Part shown: positions 20,891-47,579 of the stretch, piece after piece | Numbering within the stretch: position 1 is the first letter of the stretch | Layout of the letters: each line of letters begins with the position of its first letter | Assembly (NCBI RefSeq): GCF_037042905.1 | Contig: NC_087254.1 | Coordinates: 2,666,001 to 2,730,000 of the forward strand | Length of the DNA: 64,000 bases | Source of the DNA: Lytechinus pictus | Lineage: Eukaryota | Direction: 5' to 3' | The notes under the pieces: model-generated | The model's input: only the letters and a program-made list of their open reading frames with translations | Database searches by the model: none | What the model was told of the DNA's origin: nothing | Position numbers and translations under genes: made by a program

Positions 20891-20899
20891 TCACCACCT

Positions 20900-21188
20900 A
20901 ATACGCTATTCTTGGGGACCAGCCGTCTGTTTTCAGACCGCGGGATAGCTATGAATAGGTAGGAGTATGCACAAGGATACACACTTCATGCCTTCGATCT
21001 CACTCCCGATCTAAGGGGATCTAAGCGATGGGTGTCATTTGAATCTGGTCAAGGAAGGAAGTGTACGCTTTGAAGCGGGATTTGACGTTGCTCTACCCAA
21101 TACCCTGAATTTTATTGTATACTCTGAATCACAAGGACTCGTCCAGATTGATAGACGTACGAAAGTCATATTCCACTTTAAGGGTTGA
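20900..21188 (+). pseudogene. Maverick/Polinton major capsid protein C-terminal fragment (remnant C)
   Basis: Translates across a stop and a frameshift as EYAQGYTLHAFDLTPDL...HLNLVKEGSVRFEAGFDVALPNTLNFIVYSESQGLVQIDRRTKV, matching the Maverick capsid C-terminal pattern GYTL.AFDLTPD...G..R.E..F...L....N.IVY.E....I.ID. Confidence 0.8.
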
Positions 21189-21199
21189 AAAGGAGGAAT

Positions 21200-21640
21200 A
21201 TCCGTTACCCTACCCGGTCGACTACCCTCCAGATTGATCACGTGTTCAAGACCCATCCCACTACCAAGGATCACTTTAAAAGTGTCTTTTCATTGGATAC
21301 CGCGTGTTCTACTGGAGACAAATACTGTTACGTTTTTGATAGCGATACGAGTGATAAACCAGGCTCCCATAGGCTCGCATTTTACTACGATGGAAGGTAG
21401 AGTTTTTTTTTTCTCTTTTGGAAATCAACCCTCGTTTCGACATAGAAGAATTTCTGCATGATTCAATCAAACACTGGGGGTGGGCAGTACTGTATCTACT
21501 ATCTGATTAAAAGATCACAAGGAAAGATATATTCTGAATGTCTTTGGGACTGATTTGAATGGAAATCATAACGAAGTAAACAGATGGTTTAATGGGAACT
21601 ATAACTCACAACATCCGATTCACTCTTTCACAGATCGCTA
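21200..21640 (+). pseudogene. Maverick/adenain-type cysteine protease remnant (remnant C)
   Basis: TLQIDHVF...FKSVFSLD...VFDSDTSDKPGSHRLAFY...FFFSFG...SNTGGGQYCIYYL..R; matches the NTD..PG.HW / FFDS.G / S..CG.YC pattern with the catalytic Cys lost. Confidence 0.75.
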
Positions 21641-23377
21641 GGAGTTTTGAAAATAAAGAAGTTGATCCTTAATTACTTTCATCAGGAATACTATTTACAT
21701 TTTGTACGTTATTTATTCTCAAATAGTACTTTTATAATATCTCCCTCTTTCCTAATATCTCTCCTCATTCCATTTAATATACTTTTATCGATTTCTTTCA
21801 ATTTTTCTCTTTCTCTCTCTCTCTCTATCATGTCTCTCTCTATATATATTTTAACGAAATGAATTGTTTATGTAATGTTCAGCATGGTTTCGTAATAGAG
21901 AGGAGCGTAGAATAATTCTTAATCCATGTTATAGTTGCATAGGGAAATTCAGTAATCGTTTGTAATCGATTATGTAGGGATTTTCTTGAAAATGTATGAA
22001 AGCACTATTTGTTGAGAAATAACGATGTTTAACTGTATGATTGTGTTAGCTATTTATCTTTAATTGTTCTTCACTGTTCGGGTATAAATAGTAGTTACAG
22101 TTACCATTGATGTTGTTGGAAAGATTTATTTCATGGCCCTAACTGTTTTTAAAAGAAGATTAAATTTTACGGCCTGACAATTTCCCTCCTCCACCGATGA
22201 GCTTGATCAAGCTCCATGCTCGATTATGAGCCATGCAATATGTTTGGCAGCAAGAGGTTTCTGAACGAAACTATGTTAAATCTCTATTGGATCCTGCTGC
22301 GACGACAGGCTGAGCATGATTTCTTCAGTACAGTTTTAAGAACTGACTGCATTGCTTCCTGCTTTTCCTTATTCTGTTGTATGGAGCTACAAGTATACAT
22401 GGTCGGAAAAGCAGAAGTACTGACTAGAGAAGGAGTGAGAATACTGACTTTAGTGAGATACGGAAAATACTGAATTTACCGAGATACTGAGATTAGTGAA
22501 AATACCGAGATGAGTGAGGATACTGAAAGTACTGACATTAATGAGATACTGAAATACCGAGATTACGGAGATACTGAATACTGGAATGACTGAGATAATG
22601 GAGATACGGAATAACGGAGATGTCGAAATCCACGTGATATAATCTAAGTTACTGAGAAGGAGCAAAGAGTCAGATGTGAAAAGACGGACTTTACACCAAC
22701 TGGTTGTATATTGCAGCCGAAACGAACCATATTGTACCAGACCGATTCAACGGCAGCACTCCGGTTCAAGACTATCTGAACCATTTCAGTTGTGCGTTGA
22801 GATCAATCGCTGGGAGAACCTTAGGCAATGGAATATCTGGCAGCCAGTCTGAGATGTTCTGCAGTTAAACTGCTAACGCAGAAAAGAGGAAGGCGACTCA
22901 CTTACTATGAACTAGTGGACAGAATGAGGAAACGATATGGTCCAGGTGGTAAGGCAGAGGTCTACCTTGCCGAGTTACGACAGCGACGGAGAGGACAAGG
23001 GGAGATTCTTCACGAATTAGGACAGAGCATAAGAGATATGACGGCTCTCGCCTATCCTGAATTTGATGAAGACCGACAAGGCCGGTTGGCGAGGGGGCAC
23101 TTTCTAGATGCGATTGTAGATTTCAAAATCCGAGAAGGGCTTTTCCGCTCGCGACCAAGATCACTGGAGGAGGCAATAGAAGCTGCTCTGAATGCGGAGG
23201 CGTTCTCAAGGATGGAGGATGAAAGGTGGAAATTCCAGTTAGCCAGGTACAGCCCTGCTGTAACCCGAGATTGCGACGGAATTCATTCCGTACTGGAAAA
23301 CCCTACTGGAAAGTAAGAATGAAAAGACTCATTCAAGACCTTCTCGAAATGGAATCGGAAGAGCCAGACGACCACAT

Positions 23378-25036
23378 CTGGTACCGGACAGATTTGATGG
23401 ACGCACACCTGTCGAAGATTATCTGCATCACTTTGAGGCCTGTGCTGGAGTAAACGGATGGACAAGAAGGGAAGCAGTTCAGTTCCTTGCTGCAAGTCTG
23501 AGGGGCCCTGCTGTGAAGTTGTTGACCCAACAACCTGGAGTGGTGTTGACATACGACGAGTTGGTATACAGGCTCAGAAACAGGTTTGGCCTAGGAGGCA
23601 AAGCTGAGGTATACCTGGCGGAGTTGAGGCAACGTCGTCGCCGACCAAAGGAAAGTCTCCAGGAGTTAGGACAAAGAATACGGGAGCTGTGTGGATTGGC
23701 GTATCCCGAATTCGACGAAAAGGGGCAGGATCGGCTTGCCCGAGGGCATTTCCTAGATGCCGTAGTAACACCAGAAATAAGAGAAGGATTATTCCGTGCT
23801 CAACCTCGCACATTGGATGATGCTGTGGAAGCTGCTTTAAACACAGAGGCCTTTCTGAGAATGGAGGGTCAGAGGAACGAAGTAAAGCGGGCTACAAGGT
23901 ACAGCCGAGCTCTGGAAGAGCAAGAGTGTGAGGTTGTAGCAGTGCGGGAACATCAACCAAGGAATCCAACTATCGACAAGATAGTAAAGGCTGTCATAGA
24001 CGCCTTGGATGAAAGAGACAGGACAAAGGAAACACAAATCAGGACCAAGTATCAGGAATCAAGAAAAGATGGCGTAGAGCCACAAAGAAAAAGAGAGGAA
24101 CCAAATAAATCAAAGATTGATGAACAAGAGGAACAAAGATGTTTCAACTGCAATGGATTGGGGCATTGGAGGAAAAACTGCCCATATCCAAAGAAAATGA
24201 AAGGAGGAACAGCAGCTTTTCAAGTATCCGAAAGGGAAATGATGAGCGAAATAAAAGAGAAAGAGGAACAAATCAGAGTCGGAACGACTCTAGATGGACA
24301 AGAGAAAAGAGGAACAGAGGAACAAACAACAGTCGGAGTGACTCTAGATGAACAAGAGAAAAGAGGAATAAAAGAACAAGAAAAAGAGGAACAAACCAGA
24401 GTCGGAGCGACTCTAGATATCAAGAGAAAAGGGCTTTACCTTCAAGGCAGAGTAAATGGACAAGAATTAAAATTATTGGTCGACACTGGAGCTACCAACA
24501 CTCTTATTGGAGAGAAAGTGTTTGACCAAATAGAGGAAATCAGAAGACCAGAATTACTACCAGTGACAAGTGTTGTACTACAAGCAGATGGATCTCAATT
24601 GAGAATCAGAAGAAAGTCAATGCTGGAAGTGCAGATTGGAGACATAGTCGTCACTACAATGGCTACAGTGGCTAGTCTAAAGAATGAGGGCATTTTAGGG
24701 CTAGATTTCCTAGTCAAAATCAATGCTGTATTAGACTGCCAAAAGATGGAATTGAGGACCAACTATGGCATAATTCCATGCCTAGATAGTAACGGAGAAT
24801 CATTCTGCAGGAGGATAGTAGCGGGAGAAGATTATTCGATTCCCCCAGGACACGAGGTGGTATTAGCAGGTAGAGTTACAGGCAGAAAAGTGTCACTAGG
24901 TGATGGATTAGTAGAACCACCTGCAAATCCAACAGAACTAATCAAGATGAAGCATGCACGTGTTCCATGGCTTCTAGACGTCTTGTTCGAATATACCCTG
25001 TGCTGCCAGACCGGGAATATAGGGAACCGCGAATGA
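23378..25036 (+). pseudogene. Gypsy B gag-protease open frame, truncated before RT
   Basis: LVPDRFDGRTPVEDYLHHFEAC..., CFNCNGLGHWRKNC knuckle, LLVDTGA aspartic protease. Confidence 0.88.
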
Positions 25037-25088
25037 GTCGATCTCTTATGAGGTCACCACGTCGCTCTGACTCTCGCTCACCACGTCG

Positions 25089-27150
25089 CACAGTGGGCCA
25101 GAATGAACCCAAAGTGCGCCAAAACCCATTATTCACACATTTGTACGATTAAATTTGGTAGATAGGGGTAATTTCACCCGTAGAATTCAATAAAAGTATT
25201 TTCAAATATTGATGACGTCGTTAAAATACTGTTTTCTGATTGGCTGTTAACATTTGAGAAGAAATTACATGTTTCTAATTGTACAATAAGTTTCAAATTT
25301 TCAGAAACTAGTTTTAGAGAAATTTCAGCAATAATTAAGCATATTAGCAAACAGCAAACACACAAACAGGCAAACAAACAAGATGGGTCTGTGCTCGGGG
25401 TACAATAATTCAATTGGTGACTTGAGTATCGCTTAAAGAGGGCGCCCTACCATGAATCCGGAATTGTAAAATTCAGAGTGAAATTGTAAAAAAAGTATTT
25501 TCATTCCCTGGGTACAATGATTAACCACACCTACATGAATTAAAATGGATTGATACCAGAAGTGGACAGTGAAATCTTTAAAATAATGATTCCAGTGATA
25601 AATAATATAGGCCGGGTCCTCTGCAGGTTAATCAGTACAAGGCCCTACAAGGCCTATCTATTTCACCAAGAACGGCGTATACAAAGTTATTCCGAATCAG
25701 AGTCTCTCTCTCTTCTATCTCACCAACTATTATGTCTTTGGTGAGAGGATCTATTAGCATACTTTGAACATCAGGGGGAAGAGGCTGTGATTGTTGTACT
25801 CTTAAAAACTTGCTTCTAATCACAATGTCACCTGTTACCATTAGTCTGTGGAATACATATAAAGTCAATGAGAGTCATAAACCAAACAATCCTTGAAATG
25901 ATAATATACACTTCCTTCTTGATCGATAGTAACAATTATAGCAAATTTAGAATGAGCCAATAGATAAACGAATTCATACGTGTATGTGAAGTTACAAACC
26001 CTTTTGGGGGGATAAATACTAATAATAATAATGATTGCGAGACAAATGAATACCCTCTAGCGATTATTTCATTCCGCAATAATGAACCTATTTAGTATTA
26101 ATGATAATGCAACCTATACATGTAATAGAGCCCACGTATATCCCATCTCTGTCCTATACACATTTTCATATTTTGTCAGAAAACTGCGTGAGACCTATCA
26201 CATCCCTAGTCATGTGTGTTATATTGATATACAGTAGTCCCTAACTTGGTTTATGAACAAAACTAATATAATCTTACCCGGGAATCTTACCTTAAGAATT
26301 AATCTTCTCAGGATGTCAGATATATGGAACAACGGGATGGAACAGTTTGGCATCAAAATGAAGTTGTGTTACATGTATTATTATATAGTTAGTGGAATTG
26401 GAAATGAAAGCTTGCCTTTACGTATGTTTAACGAAAATATTTTAAAGGCAGACACCAGTCACAAGAGCCAGACACTTGAGCCAGACACCCCCCCTCTCTC
26501 TCTCTCTCTCTCTCCCAGCACGCGACGGGGAGTTTGTTTAATGTCACCCGCAACGTTCGGCACGCGCATAATGGGACACTAACTTGGAACGATTTTTGTG
26601 ATAAATACGGCGAACATGTGGTTGGAAAATTGGTTATATCTCCAGAAAATGCACGTATATGCAGCTAAATTTGGTATCAGTGTAAAGCATGAACTATAAC
26701 AAAGACCGTCATGGTATTTACAGCGCAGCAATCGGCAGCAATTTGTAAAAGAAATGCTCATGAAAAAAAAAAATGCTAAAACCCCCCATTGTCAAATGGT
26801 TTCGTCCAAAATTGCCTCTGATGGGATCATTATTTTATCTTGAAAATCTCTGATCACTTAAAGCAATCATTCATCAATGAGCACCGTGAATAAGAAATAA
26901 ATTAAGCAATCCGTTTTGTTAAAGCAGTGAAATATCTAAAACGTGTCATTTACACATGCGGTAGCCGTAAAGAGTCATTTTCCGGTAATATTGAATAAAA
27001 ATGAGCAACTAATAATCAATTTAATGGAGAAATATTGTATGGAGGCATTCTACAGGTTCTTATCTTTGCTTAGAACATGAAAAAAACAAAATTTGTTTCA
27101 TGACCAAAAACCAGTTTTGGCGCACTTTTGCTCTCTCCTGGCCCACTGTG
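25089..27150. mobile_element. Non-autonomous Transib (RAG-related superfamily) DNA transposon
   Basis: Bipartite 37-bp TIRs starting CACAGTGGGCCAG; perfect 5-bp GC-rich TSD CGTCG on both sides. Confidence 0.85.
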
Positions 27151-27944
27151 CGTCGGTCAGAACGTGCTAGTTCGGCTCGTCATTCCCGTTCCCGATCACC
27201 AAGACGGAGGTCCAGGACAACACAAAAGGACATGCCTAAATCATCTGTTCCAGACTGTCCAAAGTCTCCTGAACCTGACCGATCAGAAGTATCTCCACGA
27301 CATGGTCGGAATTCTACCCCTGAACCAGAGGAGGAGCTGGACTATGATCAGAGGTCGCCTTCACCCCTTGATTTGAGATACACTTCTGGGAAAGTGGTGT
27401 CGGAGATGCCGTCTACCAGTGACTGGATAGAATGCACTGGTAGGGATGCTGAGACGCAGACTGACAACCCCCGCCAGAGAATTCAGGCAATCTTACAAGA
27501 AATAAGAACCGGCGGATCAGAAGAGAAGGTGACCCTGAACAAGTCAACCGACACATTCCAGATTCCACCAGATGTCACCTAGCTTTGTTCGTACCACGGA
27601 GCGTTACATCACTAAGGAAGGAGAACTGTTAGAAGTAGTGACGGAGGAACTCAAGAAGAAAGAGTCGTCTTGAACAGTATCTCTCGTGTTCTTTAGAGTT
27701 ATGTTGTTAATACAATGACACTATAAGAAGGCATGTCACCATGTACCTTGGACATTATTTTTCATGCCGCATTGCTTAGGAGTTATCTTTGGACTAAAGC
27801 TATTGTGTTTTGTTGAACCTGAACATTGTTTTTTAGGACTCTATGGATAGTTTGATACACATGGATACGTTTTGTTAACGTGCTACAGTTTTTGATGTTG
27901 TTAAATGACGCTCGGGGGCCGAGCTTTGAAAAATAAGGGATTTG

Positions 27945-29244
27945 TGTCACGAAATGGGTTTTATTTCGTGTGTAGAAAATTATTTTTGGTTGATTAATAA
28001 TTGTCGTAGCTGGCGATATTATATGCATGTTTCTACACTAATAATGACGTAGATAACAACATGAAAGTTATGCATGTTTTGAACGGTTTTTGTGGAATAA
28101 CAATTTCCTGAAGATGTTTCACTGGTTCATTTGGTTATCACTAGCTTGATCTAAATAAATGCTTTAATTTGATATGTCATTCATGCATATCCGATTTCGG
28201 AGAGCAAAGTAATAGCTGTTCTAAGATTGTAACAGAGGTTAACTGTAACAGATATTGTATAGTTAATGCAAAAGTACGTTAAGTTTGTAAACTCGTGAGG
28301 TTTTGCCGATAATCTGTTAAAATACGGCGCCCACGGGGTGCATTGCACGTGAAGTATGCAGATTGATTTGGATTCGCTATCCAATAAATAAAGTTGGTGG
28401 ATGCGATCGAAATGATTTATATGATCGTTCGCATGTCTTTCCACGGGGAAACCGAGGATGGATTTTCTAGTCCTAGGCGACGACTGTGGTTAGATTTCCT
28501 TGTGTGTTGGGTCTTTTGCACGCCAGCAAGAGACTATACCAGGGCTTGCTCTTTTGGTAGTCTGGTTGGTCTGGAGGCGGACGGTTCGGAGTCTGGAGTA
28601 GACGGCTGGTGGTCCGGAGCAGACGGGTTGGTCTAGTCTCTGAAGCGGATGGTTGCTGGTCTGAATCAGACGGTCGGAGGTCTGGAGCAGACAACAGGAA
28701 AACTACAAGTATAGCAGAGCCAATGGGTGTGGTCGTGAGAGAGAGCCTGACTGCAGAAGGACCCATACATATGGTCGAAGAACCAGACGTAGTTTCCGGT
28801 ACTGAACAGACGTGGTTGCAGTGCTGAACAGACGGTGTTGCAGTACGGTATCAGACGTGGTTTACGGTACTGAACAGACGTGGTTGCAATACGGAATCAG
28901 ACGTGGTTGCAGTACGGAGCAGACGTGGTCGCTGCTTAAGAGCTTAACTACAGGAATCAGATGCATATGGTCGAGAGAGCTTAACTACACAAGCTAGATG
29001 CATATGGTCGGGTGAGCTGTTGGAGCTGACAACAAAGAGTGTAGCCGTCTGGAGGTTGCCTGGTGGTGGTACTGACAGGATCGAGGCGTGTGCAAGTGTC
29101 AACTGCGGCAGTATATCTCTGCCAAACGGATCCGCGACTAAAAGTTTGGAAATCGACGTGGCAAAGACACCCACCGGCGGCAGGCATCCTGACAAGAGCG
29201 AGCTGCCGGCGGACCACCCAACAACCCCGCCCAGCGATTCCGTC

Positions 29245-29247
<3 letters not shown>
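27945..29247 (+). repeat. 3' LTR of Gypsy B with internal short tandem repeats
   Basis: TG...CA ends, preceded by a purine-rich tract and followed by (TA)n. Confidence 0.7.
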
Positions 29248-29319
<72 letters not shown>

Positions 29320-29396
29320 GTGTGAAGTTATACATGTACTACAGCTTTGGCAACTCTTTTATATTTAAATATTGTGTGAAAGAAATGGATGAAGAG

Positions 29397-29480
<84 letters not shown>
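29248..29480. repeat. (TA)n microsatellites
   Basis: Two long TA runs. Confidence 0.97.
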
Positions 29481-30201
29481 TGTATATATCTCATTTGGAA
29501 TCATTAATATATTATACAATTTTTACTTTAACGTGACTCGCGTAGAATTATAAGGAACAATGACATCTGATAAATTGTAATGTAATTGTATACTTTAATG
29601 ATCAATGAAAATGAAATTTTACATTCAATCGATATCAATTGTCTTAATTTCTTTTTTCTCACAGTCAGTCTATACCATTTGTTTAATTACTATAAATCTC
29701 GTGTACAATGTCACTAAATAATATAGAACCAGATTAAGTTTATATCGTCAATTATTTAGCGAATCAATACCGTCCAAGTTTATTCATAACGGCATGTATA
29801 AATTTACATCATCATGGGTGGATATTTCCTTCCTTGTACAATTTGTTCGTACCACTATACAATCTATTTCTATATTAAATGTTCAAAAGACAAATCGAGA
29901 ATTATAATATATACACGTTATTAAGATTTAAACTGATCGGTGCTTCCACTTCAAAAATAATATCAGGAAATCTTGCATTGTCCGAATTTCGAAAAATAAC
30001 ATTTAGTAATTGGTAGAATGAAATGAGAGAAATAATTAGTGACCATATACCTCAAGATTAAAAAAAGGTACCACTTTGATCATATAAAGTTTTTCATTTA
30101 TATACTAAATTATACAAACGATAATAAAGAGTGATGAAAACAACTCATAGAAATCTCAAATAAGTCAAATATATACAGAGTTATACATTCTTATACAAAT
30201 T

Positions 30202-31020
30202 TCAGGGTGACTGAAACCATTACATTCCCTTAAGAATGCATTATTTTTTCGATATAGGATCGATTTTTCTTCTCCTTTTTCCACTTTCAGGTTTAGAAAT
30301 ATTTGCAAATAAATCAACCCGTTTGGTTACCTTTTCTGTTAAATCTAAAAACTCTTGTTGCTGTTCTTTGTTCTCTATCCCATCTCGTCGTTTCCAGCGT
30401 TGTAGATCACTTCTTTTCAATTCTTTTCAATTCTTCTTTTTTGATTCGTACAAAAAGTTTCGGGAATATTCATTTAAGCGGGAAGACACATACAATGCTC
30501 GTTACCCCCGGGGCACACAGCCTTTCCGTTCACGAAAAATGTCATACATTAAATCACAGAGATTGCTCCCGCGGATAGGTCTGCCGTCGATAACGACTTG
30601 TCCTGTCGAAGTCCATCCAAAACTTTGATTCATCTTTAATTTCTCAATAAGTTGATGAGCACGATTATTTTTTGCGATTTTTTTTTTTGATGTGTTGTTC
30701 CACAGGATATCCGACACCTCAATTTCCTTCACTGGTGGAATGGACTTTTTGTGTCCGCTACCGTGAGCCTGATGGGATTGACTTCATGATTTCGATGGGA
30801 ACGAGTTTCTTTGCATTCTCCGTTGCCTTTAGGAATGTTTGCAAATATTGTGAATAGTTTTGCCTTGTCTTGAACGTTTAAGTCCTTTCTTTCCAGAATA
30901 CTACGCATCTTCTCGTCGAGTTCATCTAGCCTGTGTTGGTTAGGTGAAGACGGGTTCGGATGAAAGGACTGTAGTATATGCTAGGGGGTATATAAGAACC
31001 ATTTTACGAGCATGTTTCTT
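30202..31020 (-). pseudogene. Conserved Maverick hypothetical protein, degenerate
   Basis: HARKMVLI...LDELDEKMRSILERKDL...GWTSTGQVVIDGRPIRGSNLCDLMYDIFRERKGCVPRG, a pattern I recognise from Mavericks. Confidence 0.7.
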
Positions 31021-31376
31021 AATGACGAGCACTTCTTACGGGAAAAGGCGTTAGTAATTGCACTCACATCGGGGACGACGATTATCAGTAGGGGTTGGAG
31101 AAATCCACCGAGTTGTTTGAGGAGCTTTTTCTCTCCTTGAGCGAGGTCCGGCGATCTGATAGCTTTCTCAGTGTCTGTTTGTCTTTTATGAGTGAACGTT
31201 TGTGAGAGGGAGAGAAAGTCTGATGTTTCTATTCACAAAATAACGATACATTCACATACTAGTATAGCATCGGCGAATCCTTTGTCGGCTGTTTGTAGCA
31301 ATGCCTTTCTCTGCTTGGGGCTGCAGTGAAGCAAGGTCTTTAGAATAACAACGTGTGTTGATCCGCGGCGGGACAT
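31020..31376 (-). pseudogene. Small basic Maverick ORF (core-protein-like, QxGGFL motif), degenerate
   Basis: MSRR...LKTLLHCSPKQRKALLQTADK....CEC...KKLLKQLGGFLQPLL; homologous to the N-terminal part of the 46960 ORF. Confidence 0.7.
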
Positions 31377-31574
31377 TTTTTGAAATAATGTCGGTCGGTT
31401 GAGAAGTGCTCCTTTATTCCTTTGGGAGGTAACTATATTGAGTTTCCCCCCGGAAATATATTTGTCCTCAAGCGGAATTCATCTGGAGTGTCAGGTTTTA
31501 GGTCGAAGAAAAGGTAGCCGTATTTATCTTTGGTAGCATCTGCGTATGCCTCTGGAAAAATCTCGTTCGCCCTG

Positions 31575-31957
31575 ATGGGTGTTTTATAAAGCTGTTCGTA
31601 AGTTAAGAGCGACTTTAAGAACGACTGGTGATCCTTTCTTGTTATACCGAGGTTTTTTACCTGACTGCTAAGAAAGAACGAATGCCTGTGAGTAAGAGAC
31701 CAGGGGACCTACGGCTTAAGGTCCTCTCCGAGGGACCTGGTAATGAGGATAAATGCCTTACCAAAGGGCACTAGCGCACCACTTGGGAATCGAACCCGGG
31801 TCACCGGAATCCGAAACCCCCGCTCTACCGACTGAGCTATCGCGCCTCCCTTGTGGTAAATGGTATATTCATTGGCGACGGTTTAGCGCTTAAGAAAGGA
31901 TCACCAGTCGTTCTTAAAGTCGCTCTTATCTTACGAACAGCTTTATGAAGCACCCAC
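31575..31957. mobile_element. PIF/Harbinger-like MITE (CTG TSD) inserted in the ATPase
   Basis: Long TIRs; 3-bp TSD; removing it restores the ATPase frame. Confidence 0.85.
31643..31849 (-). mobile_element. tRNA-derived SINE nested in the MITE
   Basis: A box TAGCTCAGTCGG, B box GGTTCGATTCC, non-tRNA tail, CTTGT TSD. Confidence 0.85.
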
Positions 31958-32444: not shown

Positions 32445-32524
32445 CATGGACCTATCCACGGAGGATTATCTATTGTTACTGGGGTGCTGTGACAATATAA
32501 TAATCCTCCGTGGATAGGTCCATG
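32445..32524. mobile_element. 80-bp hairpin MITE with an 8-bp TSD (P-element- or hAT-like)
   Basis: 25-bp perfect TIR CATGGACCTATCCACGGAGGATTAT; TSD CATCCATT. Confidence 0.85.
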
Positions 32525-35728: not shown

Positions 35729-36926
35729 CTTTTTTCATCTCCCTCCTCACCCATCACGTTAATAGTTATTCTTTTCTACAGAAACTAAGAATGGATGCCA
35801 CTTGGATCAGGCTATTTGATCTCTAAAGGTTGTTTTCCTCTCTCCTATCCTTAATTGACAATGTATTTGATCTCTTAACGTTGTTTTCCCCCTCCTCCCC
35901 GCTCACGTTGACAATTATTCTTTTGTGCAGAAACTAAGAATGGATGCCACTTGGATCATTTTTTTTATAAATCGATTGAGAAATCTTGATGTTTGGGCTT
36001 TCTGTGCACACTACTCTGAACGCCTTTTCTGGTAGGTAAAGTGTTCTTTGCCTTTTTCAAAGTATTCTCTGACATCCACGTACACCTGCTTACGAAATGT
36101 CTTTGCGACGAGGTATTTGGGTCTGTCCTCCTTCCAGCTGATTGGACATTTTTTTCCGAACCTTCGTCACCGTCGCTTCTTTCAGTTTCCCCACTCCACT
36201 TACAGGTTTCTACCCCGTCTCTACCAAATTGACGATGGTTGGATGGTTTCATCTTTAACTCCATCTATTCTTTCTGATTTTTGTTAGGCTGCATATCCAC
36301 GTACGGTAGTTCATCGGCTACATGCAGTGGATTCTCACTATATACAACATCCGACTCGTGGCTTCCGTATCTTCTGCTCCTCCCCCTCCTTTCCTTTCCG
36401 GGGGTGACGGTATAGATGTGTCGTAGATTAGATGCTGGTATAATACCCTGCCATGGTTCCGCTTCTCCCTCGATTGCTGCAGTCCCTCGCTTGGTACGAT
36501 ACGTTGCCTTGTTCATTTTCCCCCTCGTTTTACACCTTTCCTTTTTTTTTACTCCATACCTTTCGCATCTTCTCCCATGACTTGTCGACCCCGCCTTTCG
36601 CAATATTGTCGAAATCCTATGACGTCATCTGGGGCCACTACGTCATCGGTATGACAACATGTTCATGACGTCATGACCATAACGTCATCATATCTTTGAT
36701 TTTAATTTATTCAATTCAATTCAATTCAATTCATTTATTTTCTCTTTTTCAATCTTTTTACATTTACAATGATAGCTCAATATACATATTTACAAAATAT
36801 AACATTTAAATCATTTATATAATACAGTAATACTATGAAATCGAAAGAGAACGAGACCAACTAAAAAGCAGAGCTTGTAGGGTGAAGGCCCCCTTTTATA
36901 AGTACATTATTCATAATGTACGCTAA

Positions 36927-37461: not shown

Positions 37462-37960
37462 TTAAATGTATGCATGATTATGACGTCATATCCATATCTA
37501 TATTTCATACACGTATGAATTTATATTCATCTTCATAAAACAATTAAAAAAGTTATGACGTTATAGACATCCCTATACTACTGGCGGAGAGCGTTCGCGA
37601 AAGCATTATTTGTATAATTTGGCCTCACCACGCAACTGAGCGTGAAGAGAAAAGCTGTATTTTGACCTATGAAAAATAATACATAACACCAATAAAACAG
37701 AAAAATATCAACTAATGATAAGACTCTGACTTTTAACTCGAATATATTGAAAAGTAAAAACACAAAACGTAGTTTCATTTGATTTCATAACATTATACAT
37801 CAAATAAACATTGTTGTGTAGGATATATAATACAGGTGAAAAATATATAGCCCAGTTATGTTTATAGACAGCTATCAACCTTAAACAAAACAAAAACAAA
37901 CTTGGCATAATGTTTTCATTTCAGTGGCGAGGGTCATTTTTTAACAGACCTGATGCGATC

Positions 37961-39067
37961 CTAAGGTTTTGCTGCCATGGTGCCACCCACGGTACTTATG
38001 TCGATGACACCTCTTCCAAGTGCATTATTTCTTTCAGAGTTTCGAGTGACCATGTCTTTCAGAGCCTCCTTAAATTCAGGGTACCTTACAGCGTAGATGA
38101 TAGGGTTTGCGCAGGAGTTATAGAATCCAAGAACGGTAAGCATTGAATGGAGATCACTGTTAAGGTAGGATTCAGGAACCCACCCGATGTTATAACCAAG
38201 GTAAGCAATCTGGTTCGGAGTCCAGCAGATAAAGTAGACTAGAATGACTATGATCATCATCTTCAGGATACGTTCTCTGGCCACAATGTGGAGTGATGGC
38301 ATTGGGTTTCTGTTGGAGAGATGGGTAGTCATTCCTTGAGCGTTGTTAGATTGTTGACTTAGCTTACGAGCAATTAGAATCTGTGTAATTAGCATGGCGA
38401 AACATGGCACAAAGAGACGCAGACACAACCAGTAATAAGCGATAATAAGTTTTGTGTAGCGGTTTAGATACTGTTCTTTGCACTTGTTGGTGAAGCCGTC
38501 TACCGAATGCACAAAGAAGGCGAAGAGTACAGATAAGACAGATAGAATCCAGATAAGACAGATTAAGTTCGAGATACGACGCCGGGTAATGAGGCGCTTG
38601 ACATGAAGAGGGTACACCACAGCAATGTACCTTTCAACAGATATAGATATTAGAAGATATGCTGAGGCCGTAATGGACGCCCAGAGGAGGCTTTGTGTGA
38701 TAACAAATCTGCAGTAGAGCTCACCTAACCAGGTTTTTGGAATGTACGTTGGCGAAGGATATGGTATGAGCATCACTGAAGTTAAAAAGTCTGCAACAGC
38801 AAGACCTCTGATCAAGGTATCTGTGGATCTGTTTTTCTTCCTGCGATAAAAAAGAACAACAATCACTAGGAGATTTCCTAACATGCCAAGGATTGCAGAG
38901 ATAAGTTGCAGGATAACTGACCATGACCAATCCATTGGACTCCAGGAAAAATTTACAAGGATTGTCGTATTTGCATCAAGTCCGACCTGCGTTTCATTCG
39001 ATAGTCCATTGACAATCGTGGAATCATATTGAGTACTTTCATCCATCATCGGTTTCGTCGTTTTCAT
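37961..39067 (-). CDS. Intronless class A (rhodopsin-type) GPCR, galanin/allatostatin-A-receptor-like orphan, copy 1
   Basis: 7 hydrophobic helices; GN, LAVAD, ERY, CWTP and NPIIY motifs; N-glycosylation sites; first ATG at 39067 (ORF track starts at a TTG, 39109). Confidence 0.93.
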   Translation of the reverse strand: MKTTKPMMDESTQYDSTIVNGLSNETQVGLDANTTILVNFSWSPMDWSWSVILQLISAILGMLGNLLVIVVLFYRRKKNRSTDTLIRGLAVADFLTSVMLIPYPSPTYIPKTWLGELYCRFVITQSLLWASITASAYLLISISVERYIAVVYPLHVKRLITRRRISNLICLIWILSVLSVLFAFFVHSVDGFTNKCKEQYLNRYTKLIIAYYWLCLRLFVPCFAMLITQILIARKLSQQSNNAQGMTTHLSNRNPMPSLHIVARERILKMMIIVILVYFICWTPNQIAYLGYNIGWVPESYLNSDLHSMLTVLGFYNSCANPIIYAVRYPEFKEALKDMVTRNSERNNALGRGVIDISTVGGTMAAKP

Positions 39068-39729
39068 GATCAGTTCTAGAAATGATGGACTGGTGATCTT
39101 AGTGGCCAATTGCTTGTCTGTTAGTATGAACTGTCCGTTTAAGTATTAGTATTACCACGTAGTACAATAATTACCCTTTTGATTTCATAGGCATTATCAT
39201 GGCTGATTCGGCAACAGTATCTTAACAGTGACAACAATATCAACAAGACGACGGAAGGGCTGAACACAGTTGTTCGACTGTGCTTTGTGCAAACTCTTTC
39301 TTCAACTCAGAGTAGACATACTATGAGAGTACGATATTTACTATCACTTGGAGATGAAATCTATGCACGTCAAAGTTGTTTTCCTAAATATTTTCCAAAT
39401 GGCATGCAGTTCGCCCCCATATTTATATAAACAGAAGTAACATGATAAATGAAAATATTTTTTATGATATCCAGACGTCGAAGTTATAATAAAAGCTCGA
39501 TATATCAGTGGACCAGTTTAATTAAAGAAAGAGCACTATATACGTTGACGCTGATCGATGATTGACTTCGGTTCATAATATTGATATCGTTCGAATCAGT
39601 AGTACCGGTAGTTTACATAGAATTAGCATTGACTTTGTGTACGTTTTGAGGGCTTGAATACAAGGCATATGAGGAATTATCTCTTAAACTTTTGATTTAT
39701 TTGCCCACCGGATTGTTAATAAATATTGT

Positions 39730-40590
39730 GTACAGAATGAATGAACGAATCGATTAGACCCATTGTACACCGTCTCCTCCTCCCTGCCATGCTCTTTCGA
39801 ATAAAAGACCACTTACGAACTCACTCTCTTTGCATGGGCAAAGTAGTTAAGGTTGTGTATATACTGAATGAACGAATCGACTAGTTTTGTATAGACCGGA
39901 CGAATATAATAGACCCATCTTCTACTCCATCTCTCTCTCTGAAATTAAAGCTCTTACAAATGACAGACTATGTAATTACGAACTCTCTTTCTCCCTATTT
40001 CTCTTTGCATAGAGGCCTACTGATATTAATACCTCTCAGATCGACCTTACTACTCTTAATAAATGAACGTTTCTATTTCTTTTTCTCTTACCGAATGAAC
40101 TTTTCTCAAATCGAATATTTTACTTTCAATAAATGAACAGTTCTATTACTATCATCTCAATGCGATCCCTTTTCACCTTGACTGAAAGAACGACTTTATT
40201 ATACCCATTGTACATCATCATCTCCCTCTCTCTGTATAACTCTTTCGAATAAAAGACACTTAGATATTTATCTATACATTATTTGGTCCACATATTCCCC
40301 GCTTCGAACGTTCCCTCTTTACACATCCCTATTCATTGGAATAACTTTGTGCACTAGCTCCTCTCACGCTATTCATTAGACCCATTAATTTGCTACTCTC
40401 TATCAATGGTCTTAAGCTATACATTCTTCCCTGGTCCACACACCCCCGCCCCCGCCTCGATCATTCCCTCATTACACATCCCTTTTTTAACTACAGGAAA
40501 TATCGCTCAAACTTTTATTTTTTTCCAACCGACTGTCAATGTAATGTAGTTAAGTTTGTGTACAGAATGAATGAACGAATCGATTAGCTT
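39730..40590. repeat. Degenerate tandem array (gaatgaacgaatcgattag...) that resumes at 44810-45730
   Basis: Repeated motif on both sides of the LINE. Confidence 0.8.
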
Positions 40591-40825
40591 TCATTACCTA
40601 TTACCTATAACAGGATGTACTGGAAAATGCAGAGGTCTGCAGTCGAGATTCAATGTTTCTCTCTCATCCAAATATTCTCCCTCAAAGTTTGCTATAACAG
40701 TGTCAGTGCCCAGTGGGAATGAAGGGCATTGCTGCTTAAAATATCTTAATATATCCGCTCTTATATAGCGATTAATGCATCGGAACGACGTGTCTAAGTC
40801 GTTTACAGATACTTCGGTTATCGGA

Positions 40826-41078
40826 TTCAATCATTCATTCCGGCACACAATGTGTGCACATCCTCCACTCCCTGGGGAGTATTCCAGTCAGTCGACGGTG
40901 GGGCGCACACAGTACTGGACAAGCTGCAATGACTTTCACATCCTACCGGGTACCCATTTAGCACCTGGGTCGAGAGTGGCAAAGTGTGGATTAACGCCTT
41001 GCCAAAGGACGCCAGACCGTGGTGGAATTCGAACACACGACCCTCTGTTTACAAGGCTAAAGTCAGAATCACTATACC
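40826..41078 (-). mobile_element. tRNA-derived SINE
   Basis: GGTATAGTG.. A box, GTTCGAATTCC B box, CCCAGGTGCTAAATGGGTACC core, (GAAT)n tail. Confidence 0.8.
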
Positions 41079-41769
41079 TCGGCTTATCCTATGTGTTTCA
41101 TTCCCAAGGATGATGGTACCACTGTGCATTCCACAATCAAGCTTATCAAGTCTGGTTTTGAAGGAGTTTACAGATGGAGCAGAGACAACTTCATTAGGTA
41201 GTGAGTTGCAGGCATGAACTACTCTAGCTCCAAAGTCAGTTGTTCTAACATTCAATCTGCCTCTTTTCTGGAAGAGTTTGAAAGGGTGACCTCGAATTGC
41301 CTCAACAGTAAAAGATGAGAAGAACATATCCCTTTCAAGCCAGTTTATTCCATGCACTATTTTAAAGTCTCGATCATGTCACCTCTTCTCATTCTGTATT
41401 GGAGGGATGGTAGTTTTAGAGCTCGAAGCCTGTCTCCATAGTCTAGCATTGCCAAGGATGGTATGAATTTTGTTGCTTTTCTTTGTACCTTCTCAATCTC
41501 CTTCATGTCATCCTTGTATCTTGGGTGCCTTCCTGTATTCAAGGATTGGCCGTACTGGTTTTGGGTTTTGGAATTGTATCCCTATACCTGGTGAGGAAGG
41601 TTCTCTCGAGTACTCGGCTAGCTTTCAAGACAGCTGAAGCAACATGCGTGTGAAATTTCAGTTCAGAATCCATTATAATTTCCAGGTCTCTTTCTTCCGA
41701 CACTTCCTCAAGAGTGGTTCCATCAAGGCTGTAGTTGTAATGCAAACAATTTCTGCCAATGTACAAGAA

Positions 41770-41883
41770 CAGTGGCGGACCGTGACCCGGAGGAGACAAA
41801 TCATTGGAGGGGCGCATCATTGTTCACAAACAATACAGTGCCCCTCCAATAAATTGTCTCATCTGGGTCACGGTCCGCCACTG
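41770..41883. mobile_element. 114-bp hAT-like MITE
   Basis: TIR CAGTGGCGGACCGTGACCC; near-perfect 8-bp TSD tacaagaa/tacaaaaa. Confidence 0.85.
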
Positions 41884-44145
41884 TACAAAAACTTACATGT
41901 TCCTATGTTGAACTGAAGCTGCCATTTCTTAGACCATTTTATGAGTATATCTAAATCAGCTTGCAGGATTTCACAATAAGTATTTGTAACTTTTTCTCTG
42001 AGGATCTTGGTATCATCTGCATATATCCGTACAATGCTCCTCATTATTTCTGGCAGGTCATTGATGAATATCACAAATACTGTTGGACCGAGGACACTGC
42101 CTTGCGGTATTCAACTCTTTTACTCACTCCACCTTGAAAACTGACTATCGATAGCAACTCTCTGTCTACGTCCTGTCAGGGAAGCATGTAACCACTGCTA
42201 AAGATTGCAAGTTATTCCATATCCTTTGAGTTTGCTTAATAGACGCTCATGGGGTACAAAATCGGAAGCTTACGAAAGTCAAGGTATATTGTGTCAATGT
42301 CATGTCCACTGTCTAAGGATGATGCCCAGAGCTCCATAACTTCCAATAACTGGGTTACACATGATCTACCAGGGAGCAGGGAGGAACCCATACGGGGCAT
42401 GACATGAAGCCTCGGATTATAGATTCCAGAATCTTGCCGATAACAGACGTGAGACTGATCGGGCGATAATTTTCAACAGCATTGCACAGGAGTGATGTTT
42501 GCATCTTTCCAAGATTATGGGAGTGCTCCTTCTTTTACAGATTTCCTGAATATGATAGTCATGGGTACATATCGTGTCAGAACTGGAGGTGATGTCAATG
42601 TCAGAAAGAGTGATACCATTATGTCGTTCCTTTAGATCAGGGACATAGTTGATAACTTGATAGTTGATAGTTGTAACACCCTGCACATTCTTTAACACTC
42701 CCAAGCTTCTACGAGACTGATGTAAAATATTTCTTTAAACATCTCTCTCAAAGTCTTGTCTTATTTTCTGAGCATTTTCCTTAGTTTCTTTGCTTCAGCC
42801 CTAAACCTTTCAAAATTTCTCCTAGAACGATTTTTCCTGTATGATCTCCATGCCCTATACTTTAGTTTGTGCTGCCTCATTGCAGTTCTAGTCATCCTAA
42901 TCTTGTTCTTTCTTCTCATTTTAGAGTCAGCCTTAGAGATGTTTATGTCTATCTCAGTCTCAAATTCGGATGAGAAGAGGTCCCATGCTTGATGGACATC
43001 CAAGTTTTAAAGATTTTCCACCCTGTTTACATCCAGAATAGCTATGTTTATTGCTGCATAGTGTCCTCTGTGCTACCTATTATATCTATATCCAGTTTGC
43101 TTTTTGGTTGAGATGTTGGGATATAGGTCTACATTAAACAGCAAGCACACATGGTCACTTAATCCTAGATTTGGGAAATATCATATTACTGATCATTTCC
43201 TCCTTGTGATCAGTAGATCAAGGATGGTAGGATATGCTGCCCATCCCTAGTCTGAGTGCTCTCTGTGATATGCTGATGTAAAAACATTATATTCGACAGT
43301 CAATACATATCTTTTCATCTGATGTACGAGACTCCCATATAGGTTCCAACAAATGGTAGGGCAGTTGAAATCTCCTACGACAAGCAAGTGTGATGGGTTA
43401 CTGCTTACAACCTCATGGAAAAGTTGGCATAATTTATCAGTATTGGAGTTTGCTTTCCTCAAAGTGGGGCTACGATATATAGTACCAACTGTCAGTGTGT
43501 CATTGTTCTTAATATACGCATACCTATCCATATACTCTCCTCAAAATCAGTTTCAAAATGGACTTAACAGTGGATGCATCCCTTTTTGTACATATACCAC
43601 TACGCCTCGTACTCCCTTTTTCTCGATGTTTGTGTAGGTTATATAGCTATCTATTTTGTAGTTTTCCTCGATTGGTTTTACATTAAAGTTTTTTGGCATC
43701 TGGTTGTTAACTAACAGATAGTAAAGCTAACTCATCCAGCTTGTTGAGTAAGCTGTCACTGTTTGTATACAAGACTCTCATCCCATCATTATTTATGTTT
43801 CTAAAGTAAACTTTGTCTCCAGTCTTGCATCTATCAGCTTCATGTTCTTCATCTGATATAGAAGACGAATATTCTGTGTCATTACCTGATTCACAGATGG
43901 AAATTTCAGATTAAAAACAAGTAGAAGCATTATCAGTCAAAGAAATGTTCTCTTCCTGGGCATGAACCAACCCTGTATTAATTGGCATGCTCAATTTGAG
44001 TCCCATTTTCAAAGTCCAATGTTCATGTATGTCTCCCTCTATTTATTTACATTGGACATGCATAATATGCATGTCCAATTGGTGGTGCCTGATGTCAGAT
44101 GTTTGATGGAGTCTCTGCATGGCTTGGGCTACTTTTAGTTGAAGT

Positions 44146-44259
44146 CAGTGGCGGACCGTGACCCGTAGGAGATAAAGCATTGGAGGGGCACTGTATTCTT
44201 TGTAAACAATGCTGTGTCCCTCCAATCCTTTGTCTCCTCCGGGTCACGGTCCGCCACTG
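44146..44259. mobile_element. 114-bp hAT-like MITE, same family, opposite orientation
   Basis: Same TIR; perfect TSD GTTGAAGT. Confidence 0.88.
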
Positions 44260-45185
44260 GTTGAAGTACCAAGTAAAGAATTATCTCCTTTCTTTTTACT
44301 ACTATCGTCAAGGTCAGTGCTCCTTGTATTTTCATAATATGTGGCAACATCTACTTGTATATCTTTAGTTGATGTCTGGCTATCTGAACAGATAGGACAT
44401 GGGTGTAAGAAGACTATGCAAAGAGCTGTTGTCCCCATGATTGTCTTGAATGATCGAATTAGCCTGCTTCCCAACAGGACTATTATCTTCAAAACTGTCC
44501 CCAGTCTTTGGTTCTGGGACACAAGGCTTCCGATTCTCTGGGTTGTCTCTGTGATATGTGCTATCAGGAATTTTTTTTATTCCTGAGGCATTAGAAGCAG
44601 TTATTACAATGGATTTAGAAGGAGCTAGAACATAGTGATAGAGATGTTTTGGTGTTTCTAAGTGGTACTTCGTCGTGGCACAATCTTATCATGTTTGATT
44701 ACTAGGTTTTGCTCACCGTTCTCTCTTCCTTTCTTTACTTCCGCTCAGTTCCTTGTGTTGAAGCCCTAGCTGAGCAGTTCTATCTGGGTCAACATATGAG
44801 TTTACCCATACAGACTGAATGAACGAATCTATTAGACCAATTGTACACAGTCTCCCTCTCTCTCTTGAGCTCTTTCGAATAAAAGACTATGTACTTACGA
44901 ACTCTCTATTTGCATAGGCCTACCTCTTTTGTGTAGTTTAGGTTGTGTACAGACTGAATGAACGAATCGATTAGTTTTGTACAGACCGTACGAATCTATT
45001 ATACCCATTGTTTACCATCTCACTCTCCACCCCTTATCTCTGAACGAATCCATTACCTTTTACTCTAAAACGACTCCATTAAATTTTACTCTCACTGAAT
45101 GAACGAATCTATTAATATCATTTCATCTCAAATCGAATCTACTCTTGGAAAAATTTGATATATTACTACCATCCTCAATCGATCC

Positions 45186-45487
45186 TTCTGACATTGACAT
45201 CACCTCCAGTTCTGACACGATATGTACCCATGACTATCATATTCAGGAAATCTGTAAAAGAAGGAGCACTCCCATAATCTTGGAAAGATGCAAACATCAC
45301 TCCTGTGCAATGCTGTTGAAAATTATCGCCCGATCAGTCTCACGTCTGTTATCAGCAAGATTCTGGAATCTATAATCCGAGGCTTCATGTCATGCCCCGT
45401 ATGGGTTCCTCCCTGCTCCCTGGTAGATCATGTGTAACCCAGTTATTGGAAGTTATGGAGCTCTGGGCATCATCCTTAGACAGTGGA
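45186..45487 (+). repeat. Inverted 302-bp copy of LINE segment 42305-42606
   Basis: Reverse-complement match with one mismatch seen; identical peptides appear in the ORF track. Confidence 0.95.
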
Positions 45488-46273: not shown

Positions 46274-46870
46274 ATGATGGACACAAGATTGAAAACTCCC
46301 TTCACTCTCTTAATAGGTGGACCAACCGGATCAGGCAAACCAACATTTGTTAAGACACTCTTGAAAAAAAAAAAGATGTTGTGGACCATATCTTTGACCA
46401 CGCTGTCTGGTGTTATGGGGAATATCAAGATGGTTATGTTGATATGGAGAGGGATGTGCCTGACATACAAATTCATGTAGGAATACCTTCCAATCTTGAA
46501 CCGATGTTTGACCGTAAAGAGAATAATCTGATCATCCTTGATGATTTAATGACTGAAGCCATTAAAGATAAGATAATCACACATTTGGTCACAAAGGGTA
46601 TAGTCATCATAGAAATATTTCCGTCATACTTCAAAATGTATTTTTTCAAGGAAAGGAAAGTCGTACAAAAAGTTTGTACACTCACTACAAAGAGATATAC
46701 CCAAATAAAGTTAAATTCTTCCAAGAGGCATATGGTGATGCCACTTCCAAACCAAATGGATGCCTTCTAATAGATCTGAAACCTGATACACATGATCGTC
46801 TACGGCTAGGAACGGAAATTTTGCCAGGGGAATGACAATATGTCTATAGTATGAAACAACACATTCTCAT
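46274..46870 (+). pseudogene. Packaging ATPase of Maverick B, frameshifted
   Basis: MDTRLKTPFTLLIGGPTGSGK, WCYG..Q, LIILDDLM, TKG.HHRN, EAYGDAT..P.G.LLIDLKP. Confidence 0.9.
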
Positions 46871-46959
46871 TGATGATATAAAAGTGAATGGAGATCTATT
46901 GTGCTGGACATCATTCTAGTATAAATGTTGGTAAAGTAAGGTAAGATGACTCATTTATC

Positions 46960-47310
46960 ATGTCACAGAATTTGAAGAATAATGTACCATATCTTCATGC
47001 CTTGGCTCGTGGAAACAATATTCAGAGACAAGGACAATTAAAGGGTGCTAACACAGATTCGGTCAAATGTATTTGTGAATATGCTCTCAAAATACTGAGG
47101 GGTAATATACCTCTCTCTACAGAGGAACTTTCTACAACGAAGAACTTCGAGAGGGTTGTGACACCTCGAGACGATGTGTACAGAATCGAACGCGTACTAG
47201 GAAAGAGAAAACGTGGGAAATTGATAGAATATCTTGTGAAGTGGCAAGGTAACCCAGATAAATTCAACAGTTACGTCACCGAAATACAAAGGATTGATTG
47301 GCAAGCTTAA
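46960..47310 (+). pseudogene. Deletion fusion of the small basic Maverick ORF N-terminus with the integrase C-terminal chromodomain
   Basis: ...CICEYALKILRGNIPLS joined to YRIERVLGKRKRG...EYLVKWQG.PDKFNSYV. Confidence 0.82.
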
Positions 47311-47322
47311 TTAAGAGTAGGC

Positions 47323-47546
47323 ATGGCTGTGTTATCCTCAAAATCTTTTAATGTTACCTTACCAAGTAATAGCTAATTGTGGGATTGTGTGAGATTCACT
47401 ATCATTATCGCTGGTATAACTACTTGGAGGAAGACAAAGATTCGAAAGTATCCTATTCATACGAAAGAGGAGAGACATACTAGTAGTCAGACTATCACAT
47501 GTCCGATGGTCATTATTCTGACATTCACGATTTTCTAAGAGATTAG
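47323..47546 (+). pseudogene. Maverick minor capsid (penton) N-terminal remnant
   Basis: SFNVTLPSNS then, after an internal deletion, VGLCEIHY..RWYN. Confidence 0.7.
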
Positions 47547-47579
47547 TGCCCGAAAGAATTGTTGATAAATAAAAATTTG

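Follow-up and report, generated by a model that had tools for sequence, protein, structure and literature searches.

Decayed remains of probably two Maverick/adintovirus-type viruses on either side of a receptor gene in the sea urchin Lytechinus pictus

The window analysed here is a stretch of 64,000 nucleotides from Lytechinus pictus (NC_087254.1, positions 2,666,001 to 2,730,000 of the forward strand), and decayed Maverick/adintovirus-type DNA virus remains are recognised between its positions 20900 and 47550 by profile, fold, and tree tests (Table 1). The viral genes lie in three remnants, referred to as C, A, and B in their order along the window. Pfam saw little in six-frame read-throughs of these remnants, its only viral features being a PC4 domain (E = 0.005) and a chromodomain, and we therefore built family profiles from intact metagenome relatives; Rfam gave no match. 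With the family profiles, the capsid and protease were matched above null, and the Maverick/adintovirus origin put forward in a preliminary description of this DNA is supported. The genes, strands, and coordinates given there also agree with our profile and alignment matches, apart from the PC4 domain in remnant A, which had been missed. That most of the viral core gene set is preserved, as had been claimed, is true by gene name, but the genes are in pieces, and no polymerase catalytic core, no rve integrase catalytic core, and no PW was found in the remnants. Every viral gene is damaged by stops, frameshifts, insertions, or truncations, and neither element resembles an intact, potentially active Maverick, which would have eight intact ORFs, TIRs, and a target-site duplication.

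Table 1. Features of the locus, in window coordinates (positions are in nucleotides unless kb is given).
Position	Strand	Feature	Basis or context
16.7-20.1 kb	-	Gypsy	
20900..21185	+	Element 1 (C): major capsid (DJR) gene, C-terminal ~95 of 444 aa	profile, alignment, tree
21197..21640 (profile match to 21529; right end approximate)	+	Element 1 (C): adenain-type cysteine protease pseudogene, after MCP	profile, hhalign
21641..22090	.	AT-rich (29% GC) non-coding stretch after protease	likely part of central spacer
22200..29490 (edges approximate)	.	High-copy repeat block separating C from A, probably inserted later	read depth
22825-25036	+	Gypsy-type gag-protease	within C-A repeat block
29248-29489	.	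(TA)n	within C-A repeat block
29495..30240	.	AT-rich (27% GC) non-coding stretch past last A gene	likely other part of central spacer
30240..30947	-	Element 1 (A): conserved ORF, putative PZ/Adintoc2 by synteny; frameshifted	profile match nearly to end
31035..31403	-	Element 1 (A): small conserved ORF after ATPase, putative PM by synteny	profile
31439..32443	-	Element 1 (A): A32/FtsK-type packaging ATPase pseudogene, frameshifted	tblastn, tree
32914..35607	-	Element 1 (A): protein-primed PolB (pPolB), N-terminal part	reference residues 10-830 of 1615
36019..36440 (domain 36148-36044)	-	Element 1 (A): PC4-like domain region	Pfam, alignment
37577..37582	-	Element 1 terminus, AGTAGT on minus strand (ACTACT on plus)	break of paralog similarity
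37583..39597	-	Host GPCR unit, intact 7tm_1 ORF (stop-to-stop 39145-37961)	between two Maverick termini
39598..39603	+	Element 2 terminus, AGTAGT	break of paralog similarity
39604..40650	+	Low-copy subterminal region, presumably Maverick; short repeats recurring at 44809-45027	
40760..44700 (edges approximate)	-	LINE (endonuclease + RT), probably an insertion in element 2	
45183..45487	+	Inverted copy, 305 bp, 99.3%, of LINE 42305-42609	
46277..46856	+	Element 2 (B): packaging ATPase pseudogene, frameshifted	tblastn, profile, tree
46927..47136	+	Element 2 (B): PM-type small ORF, running directly into integrase C-terminus; PZ and rve core absent	profile
47143..47295	+	Element 2 (B): integrase C-terminal chromodomain	Pfam E 6.5e-6
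47323..47546	+	Element 2 (B): minor capsid (penton) N-terminal pieces, weak match, expected position	profile, hhalign
50.5-51.5 kb	-	RT	
55.5-55.8 kb	+	RT	
58928..60915	-	Paralog of the GPCR unit, with intact ORF 60428-59289 and no Maverick termini	empty-site control

In remnant C, the C-terminus of the major capsid protein (MCP) scores 36-41 bits against a null maximum of -0.1, and is 83% identical to a Lytechinus pictus protein (P0062, E = 1e-41) and 83-87% identical to Lytechinus pictus XP_063951992. The gene has one stop and one frameshift, and its left edge is cut by a repeat element of 15-bp units. A double-jelly-roll fold is predicted for this family, as a model of the intact P0062 matches the MCPs of iridovirus, Sputnik, and PBCV-1 (E ~1e-13); a PDB sequence search with the MCP alignment returned nothing significant. 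The protease reaches 36 bits against a null maximum of 7.4 and 98.4% in hhalign, and ASFV S273R (E = 4e-9) and adenain (E = 4e-4) are among the matches of its family. On the opposite strand, remnant A aligns with a 1615-aa, PF03175-bearing Lytechinus pPolB (E = 4e-71), the polymerase core being absent; this match was obtained with urchin proteins, and a pooled pPolB profile of 17 relatives missed it. The PC4 domain is 83% identical over 35 aa to a Strongylocentrotus protein, and the two conserved ORFs (31403-31035 and 30947-30391) each score 32 bits, against null maxima of 4.0 and 0.1 in the order named. A packaging ATPase, whose relatives carry PF04665, is present twice in the window (tblastn E down to 1e-62), and the copy in A is split by a high-copy MITE at ~31576-31956. 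A palindromic repeat (36924-37464) lies just inside the terminus of this remnant.

In remnant B, no viral gene was detected in 39598-45490, a stretch that is largely LINE, and none was found in 45490-46270 or 39150-40760. Its ATPase is only ~48% identical to that of A, and both Walker-A motifs quoted at the outset (IGPTFSGKT in A, GGPTGSGK in B) are present in the translations. The best relative of the B ATPase is an ENA protein (P0015), 64% identical and joined to it at 97/89 in the tree, and no named relative is above ~50% identical. The chromodomain scores 42 bits to the integrase family profile, and intact relatives carry PF00665 and PF00385. The penton start is weaker, at 7.7 bits against a null maximum of 2.6, and hhalign aligns two pieces of it in collinear order (E = 4e-4 and 2.5e-4, probability 34-43%). 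The penton family itself is predicted to share the fold of the mavirus/adenovirus penton (mavirus penton, E = 1e-10), and a PDB sequence search with the penton alignment gave nothing significant. B represents a distinct, co-linear lineage (element 2, starting at 39598). Contigs from sequencing runs of relatives (X1, X2, and X6) span the junction of element 2, and its insertion is therefore likely old.

Both insertion points can be placed with the help of the host. The GPCR unit between the two termini has a paralog at 59 kb, and the similarity between the two units begins at 37583 and ends at 39598, breaking at ACTACT (37577-82) and at AGTAGT (39598-603). These breaks validate both termini, with the paralog serving as an empty-site control that the preliminary description had not used; the (AGT)2 end motif occurs once per element, at the two breaks. 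What is new here is this comparison, which also places the two insertions ~2 kb apart. Both GPCR ORFs are open, with a dN/dS of 0.26 over 362 codons, as expected under purifying selection. The window yielded no second terminus, no TIR pair, and no target-site duplication, the distal ends appearing to be lost, and the host flanks displaced by the insertions were not found there either. A model in which the GPCR pair is a giant target-site duplication was rejected, as no terminus precedes the paralog. The 2-kb GPCR copy could also have been made or moved by Maverick ends, either by an aberrant two-element integration or by end-mediated adjacent deletions, and both unit borders do coincide with termini, with no displaced flank found. 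However, the termini face away from the GPCR, which is the wrong way for a composite transposon, and no terminus flanks the paralog. Moreover, the flanks of the paralog are largely other repeats, so that lost flanks are to be expected, and two ordinary deletions explain the pattern. We consider such an origin extremely improbable.

The remnants had been described as three independent elements produced by repeated integration at one locus. Two insertions are the likelier account, with C and A as element 1 and B as element 2, and repeated integration then holds in a weaker form, as two events ~2 kb apart rather than three. Specifically, C and A are probably one canonical convergent Maverick of the Strongylocentrotus/Lytechinus adintovirus clade, later split by insertions. 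In vertebrate Mavericks, pPolB-ATPase-PM-PZ and INT-mCP-PW-MCP-PRO lie on opposite strands and point to the centre (Barreat and Katzourakis 2021, PMC8097293). Element 1 would follow the same plan, with a replication module PC4-pPolB-ATPase-PM-PZ that starts from the terminus at 37582 and reads to the left, towards a capsid module MCP-protease that reads to the right. A and C have no gene in common, and where they face each other, each presents the last gene of its module. The ~8 kb between them are high-copy repeats, with a read depth of 2,700-58,800 (run X1) versus 29-230 over repeat-free viral/GPCR bins. No LTR pair or target-site duplication bounding this block was found, and a penton-profile match inside it (25277-25540, 3.1 bits) was rejected as being at null level.

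The alternative is that three separate integrations took place, in which case C would be another copy of the A family, placed head-on to A by chance. A distance of 8.6 kb indeed separates C from A, which lie on opposite strands, and the capsid family of C occurs in several copies in urchin genomes. Of 21 retrieved loci in which an MCP or protease ORF is present, 19 are co-linear and two convergent, though none of the 19 belongs to the A/C clade. Contigs of four sequencing runs (at most three samples) were aligned to 20400-40390 only, and no contig bridging C and A occurs among the 15 of 737 joints and the few dozen of ~111,800 pieces listed. Three integrations, however, require complementary losses that left exactly the two inner module ends face to face. 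They also sit poorly with the lack of an integrase after the PZ of A, where the family profile gives no signal in the following 746 bp (27% GC); wherever both ORFs were detected in a co-linear locus (25 of 25), the start of the integrase ORF lies -226 to +20 nt from the PZ end. Furthermore, C and A fall in the same clade at similar divergence. The A ATPase groups with P0005 and P0076 (DAC81419, the FtsK of Strongylocentrotus sea urchin adintovirus) at 100/100 in a tree of 63 rows, and the C MCP lies in an urchin clade with P0134 and P0141 (DAC81424, the hexon of the same virus) at 100/99 in a tree of 29 rows. P0005/P0134 rank first of 20 reference elements for both A (76%) and C (81%), versus 50% for B, and the longest contigs of these two proteins are both 17,375 nt, which is circumstantial. 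Across the 20 references, A and C identities correlate with a Pearson coefficient of 0.88 that rests on two urchin points (Spearman -0.03), and related-genome contig pieces, among those listed, are ~12% from C and 8-16% from A, or about equally diverged. The GenBank accession spacing of DAC81419 and DAC81424 was tried as gene-order evidence and set aside, as it fits neither layout exactly. Taken together, we regard three integrations as unlikely. Under two insertions, the GPCR duplication would have come first, followed by integration of each element through an rve integrase of its own. The catalytic cores and the two distal ends would then have been lost to deletions and to later insertions of Gypsy, LINE, and MITE elements, whereas purifying selection on the GPCR may have spared the two proximal ends.

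Of the known systems, the closest to element 1 is the Strongylocentrotus sea urchin adintovirus, listed in the Beta-PolB panel of Starrett et al. 2021 (PMC8502044). The ATPase of element 1 is 71% and its MCP C-terminus 67% identical to DAC81419 and DAC81424, respectively, and its long pPolB N-terminal part and PC4 are as in XP_011682593 and XP_041465845. By monophyly of both ATPase and MCP, element 1 is placed in the Strongylocentrotus/Lytechinus adintovirus clade, within a subclade separate from the published virus and closer to the proteins of the 17.4-kb contigs and to Lytechinus; it differs in being a broken fossil with one terminus. Viral contigs, genome contigs, and phages yielded no intact member of the A/C clade, nor did the 80 best among 509 metagenome stretches that had been confirmed. 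The earlier suggestion of undescribed families thus fails for A and C, which group with a published virus, and may hold for B, whose lineage is perhaps undescribed or unnamed. Vertebrate Mavericks (PMC8097293) resemble element 1 in their convergent two-module layout, if C and A are one element as is likely, and they share the (AGT)2 end motif and a PM between ATPase and PZ with the locus described here; of their loci, 96% are degraded and 2,166 have no discernible TIRs. The present fossils differ in having an echinoderm host and PC4. Element 2 is co-linear like the Mavericks of Xenopus tropicalis (PMC8097293), and follows the one-strand ATPase-PM-(PZ)-INT-penton order of co-linear invertebrate Mavericks in metagenome contigs (L008, L063, and L081). 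Unlike in these, pPolB, PZ, and the rve core are missing from it, as is every gene past the penton start, and its ATPase shares only 44-53% identity with the ones compared.

Maverick fossils are common across animal genomes, and we view this locus as ordinary Maverick fossils that are likely neutral remnants. A different view is that the locus functions as a trap or piRNA cluster, in which Mavericks accumulate and give rise to antiviral small RNAs, or that it is a target site of chromodomain integrases. Two lineages did insert 2,015 bp apart, the surrounding 42-kb block is TE-dense, and the adintovirus integrase chromodomain may influence the choice of integration site, according to PMC8502044. 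Yet the retroelement strands are mixed, without a flamenco-like antisense bias (a point that speaks only to uni-strand clusters), and the block contains or adjoins two GPCR ORFs that are under purifying selection. In addition, the two termini differ after 7 nt, with no common motif noticed at the insertion sites, and the two Maverick fossils of the human genome lie outside piRNA clusters (PMC9683012). None of the sequencing runs matching the region is listed as an RNA run (X8 is guessed to be one, share 0.06), and no title reporting echinoderm Maverick clustering or a piRNA-producing block was found in a search in which subscription literature and Repbase were thinly covered. A trap or target site is very improbable. 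It is also quite improbable that targeted integration drew two unrelated Maverick lineages to one 2-kb GPCR unit whose block became a small-RNA trap, or that the B terminus, ~0.5 kb upstream of the GPCR and retained across samples, acts as regulatory DNA that distinguishes this receptor from its paralog.

The two Maverick fossils of the locus are well resolved; one belongs to a described sea-urchin clade, and the other may represent an unnamed lineage. In practical terms, the paralog supplies the empty site against which both insertion points can be read, and since only one of the two GPCR genes has Maverick flanks, the pair lends itself to testing whether a viral terminus alters host gene expression. 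The finding would carry greater weight if Maverick insertions cluster genome-wide or if the block makes piRNAs.

Family profiles run against all six frames of the window, with one reversed and two block-shuffled windows as the null, matched at the three places where the preliminary description had put viral genes, and only there. The scores were far above the null for the ATPase (130 and 76 bits; null maximum 3.8), MCP (41; -0.1), protease (36; 7.4), PM (44 and 32; 4.0), PZ (32; 0.1) and the integrase C-terminus (42; 2.2). For the penton start, remnant B gave a weak match (7.7; 2.6) made up of two collinear pieces directly 3' of the chromodomain. The PW profile scored at null level. The remnants are real Maverick fossils, and degraded copies are the rule, accounting for 96% of 3,511 vertebrate loci in PMC8097293. 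The host's best protein matches are those of sea urchins, which places it in that group.

Most of the viral core gene set had been described as preserved, which holds by gene name but not for the catalytic cores. Against a Lytechinus pPolB of 1615 aa, the pPolB of remnant A aligns with residues 10-830 (E 4e-71); the match stops there, about 470 bp before the ATPase, meaning that the polymerase core is absent. In remnant B a PM-type ORF leads directly to the chromodomain, with PZ and the rve core missing; no pPolB was found between its terminus and ATPase, an interval filled mostly by a LINE. A PC4 domain upstream of A's pPolB shares 83% identity over 35 aa with a Strongylocentrotus protein. 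In a co-linear Maverick a free-standing PC4-domain ORF (L020:14079-15149) lies 3' of the protease, showing that its position varies among these elements.

An unbroken piece of A's ATPase retrieved 55 relatives from 92 candidates, many with Pox_A32, and an alignment of 32 of these led to 80 metagenome loci, the best of 509 confirmed ones. The fetched loci keep the order pPolB, ATPase, small ORF, second ORF, rve/chromo integrase, and ORFs of 270, 140, 440 and 155 aa; PM, PZ and PW were named from gene order following PMC8097293, not from comparison with named sequences. AlphaFold models of intact relatives show the 270-aa family to be a penton, with matches to the penton of mavirus (E 1e-10) and the adenovirus penton base, and the 440-aa family a double-jelly-roll capsid (iridovirus, Sputnik and PBCV-1, E about 1e-13); PMC4028283 supports a penton one gene upstream of MCP. 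For the 155-aa family the matches were to ASFV S273R and adenain. On one Maverick-like IMG/VR contig (L082, 192-3083, minus strand) the penton family is matched four times in tandem and the gene order is rearranged, and the Maverick genes on bacterial-MAG contigs (L083-L088) are probably eukaryotic contamination.

Self-comparison of the window showed that 37583-39598 matches a second GPCR unit at 58928-60915 (87% over 2,039 columns). This match starts one base after an ACTACT motif (37577-82) and stops at AGTAGT (39598-603); each motif occurs 13 times in the 64 kb, and by our own arithmetic the chance of this double coincidence within 3 nt is about 2 in a million. The edges of the paralogous unit carry neither motif. 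These are therefore the termini of two head-to-head insertions 2,015 bp apart, one 378 bp beyond the GPCR stop codon and the other about 0.5 kb ahead of its start. Over 362 codons the GPCR paralogs share 91% amino-acid identity, and a simple counting method gives dS of 0.16 and dN/dS of 0.26, indicating that both are kept under selection, which is likely why only the proximal ends survived. No second terminus or displaced host flank was found in the window.

Features of the window
Feature	Position	Strand	Remark
Folliculin exons (Pfam Folliculin, Folliculin_C)	0.5-6.9 kb	-	gene span 500-9320; first exon likely near 9.05-9.32 kb (-), judged by eye
Repeat of 15-bp units, two copies	11424-11600; 20480-20890		second adjoins the capsid fragment's cut end at 20900
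TE-dense block	about 15 to 58 kb
Palindromic foldback-type repeats	14530-15140; 32442-32527; 36924-37464; 57687-58724; 62381-62851
Gypsy-type gag-protease remnant	16.7-20.3 kb	-	presumed tRNA-Leu-like primer site near 20288-20303
Gypsy-type gag-protease remnant	22.8-25.0 kb	+	related to the preceding but reversed; 244 nt align at 68% DNA identity
Remnant C	20900-21640	+	probably element 1
Remnant A	30202-37582	-	element 1
MITE within A's ATPase	31576-31956		very high-copy (depth >100,000); one arm also in a folliculin intron, 8499-8564
Rhodopsin-type GPCR (7tm_1), intact single ORF	37961-39145		of the tandem intact pair; copy 37583-39597 has Maverick termini on both sides
Remnant B	39598-47550	+	element 2
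Inverted copy of LINE interior 42305-42609	45183-45487		305 bp within element 2, 99.3% identity; much more recent than the sequence around it, either inserted by templated repair or an assembly artefact
Rhodopsin-type GPCR (7tm_1), intact single ORF	59289-60428

The three remnants had been regarded as independent fossils, and for A and B this is borne out. Their ATPases, already noted as clearly divergent, agree at 63 of 130 aligned positions (48%), comparison of their gene regions gave a single 32-nt DNA match, and in a 63-row tree A's joins P0005 and the FtsK of Strongylocentrotus adintovirus (100/100) while B's joins an unnamed protein, P0015 (97/89). Remnant C, in contrast, quite probably belongs to the same element as A, so that the elements likely number two. 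The capsid piece of C falls among proteins from Lytechinus, within an urchin clade (100/99) holding the hexon of that same adintovirus, and the longest contig is 17,375 nt for both P0005, the best ATPase for A, and P0134, a close capsid for C, which suggests one element without proving it. Of 20 reference elements, the two from urchins come first and second for both A and C but are not notable against B (0.50 and 0.49); the A-versus-C correlation (Pearson 0.88) rests on these two points (Spearman -0.03). The usual layout, as given in PMC8097293, has opposite-strand modules pointing centrewards, with PZ last in one and protease last in the other; C ends with protease reading right and A with PZ reading left, and two fetched loci (L029 and L051) share this arrangement. 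Among the co-linear loci in which both ORFs occur, all 25 place the start of the integrase ORF between -226 and +20 nt relative to the PZ end, whereas the 746 bp after A's PZ hold no integrase and are 27% GC. The interval between C and A (21.7-29.7 kb) is high-copy DNA that includes a Gypsy-type gag-protease, with depths of 2,700-58,800 in run X1, against 29-230 in repeat-free viral and GPCR bins. None of the 15 joints listed (of 737) in contigs of organism A, a related genome seen through sequencing runs, connects C to A.

Two Maverick lineages so close together in a TE-dense block could be taken to mark a functional trap, a piRNA cluster or a chromodomain-integrase target site, and a published remark in PMC8502044 allows that the adintovirus chromodomain may affect site choice. 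We consider this improbable, as TE strands are mixed, selected GPCR genes lie inside or next to the block, and human Maverick fossils are outside piRNA clusters, according to PMC9683012.

In contigs of organism A (four runs, at most three samples), depth is similarly low over C, A, the GPCR and the start of B, contig depth not being copy number. Among the few dozen pieces listed, those over C diverge from it by about 12%, those over A by 8-16% and those over the GPCR ORF by 5-6%. Divergence across B's junction is about 11%; contigs from X1, X2 and X6 bridge this junction with >150 nt to either side, and an X6 contig likewise crosses the point where the pPolB match stops. These pieces are likely orthologous copies, and the insertion of B and the loss of pPolB would then likely predate the haplotype or species split.

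The suggestion that the families may be undescribed does not apply to element 1, which is a member of the described sea-urchin clade of Strongylocentrotus adintovirus. Element 2, whose best relative is an unnamed protein at 64%, may represent an unnamed lineage.
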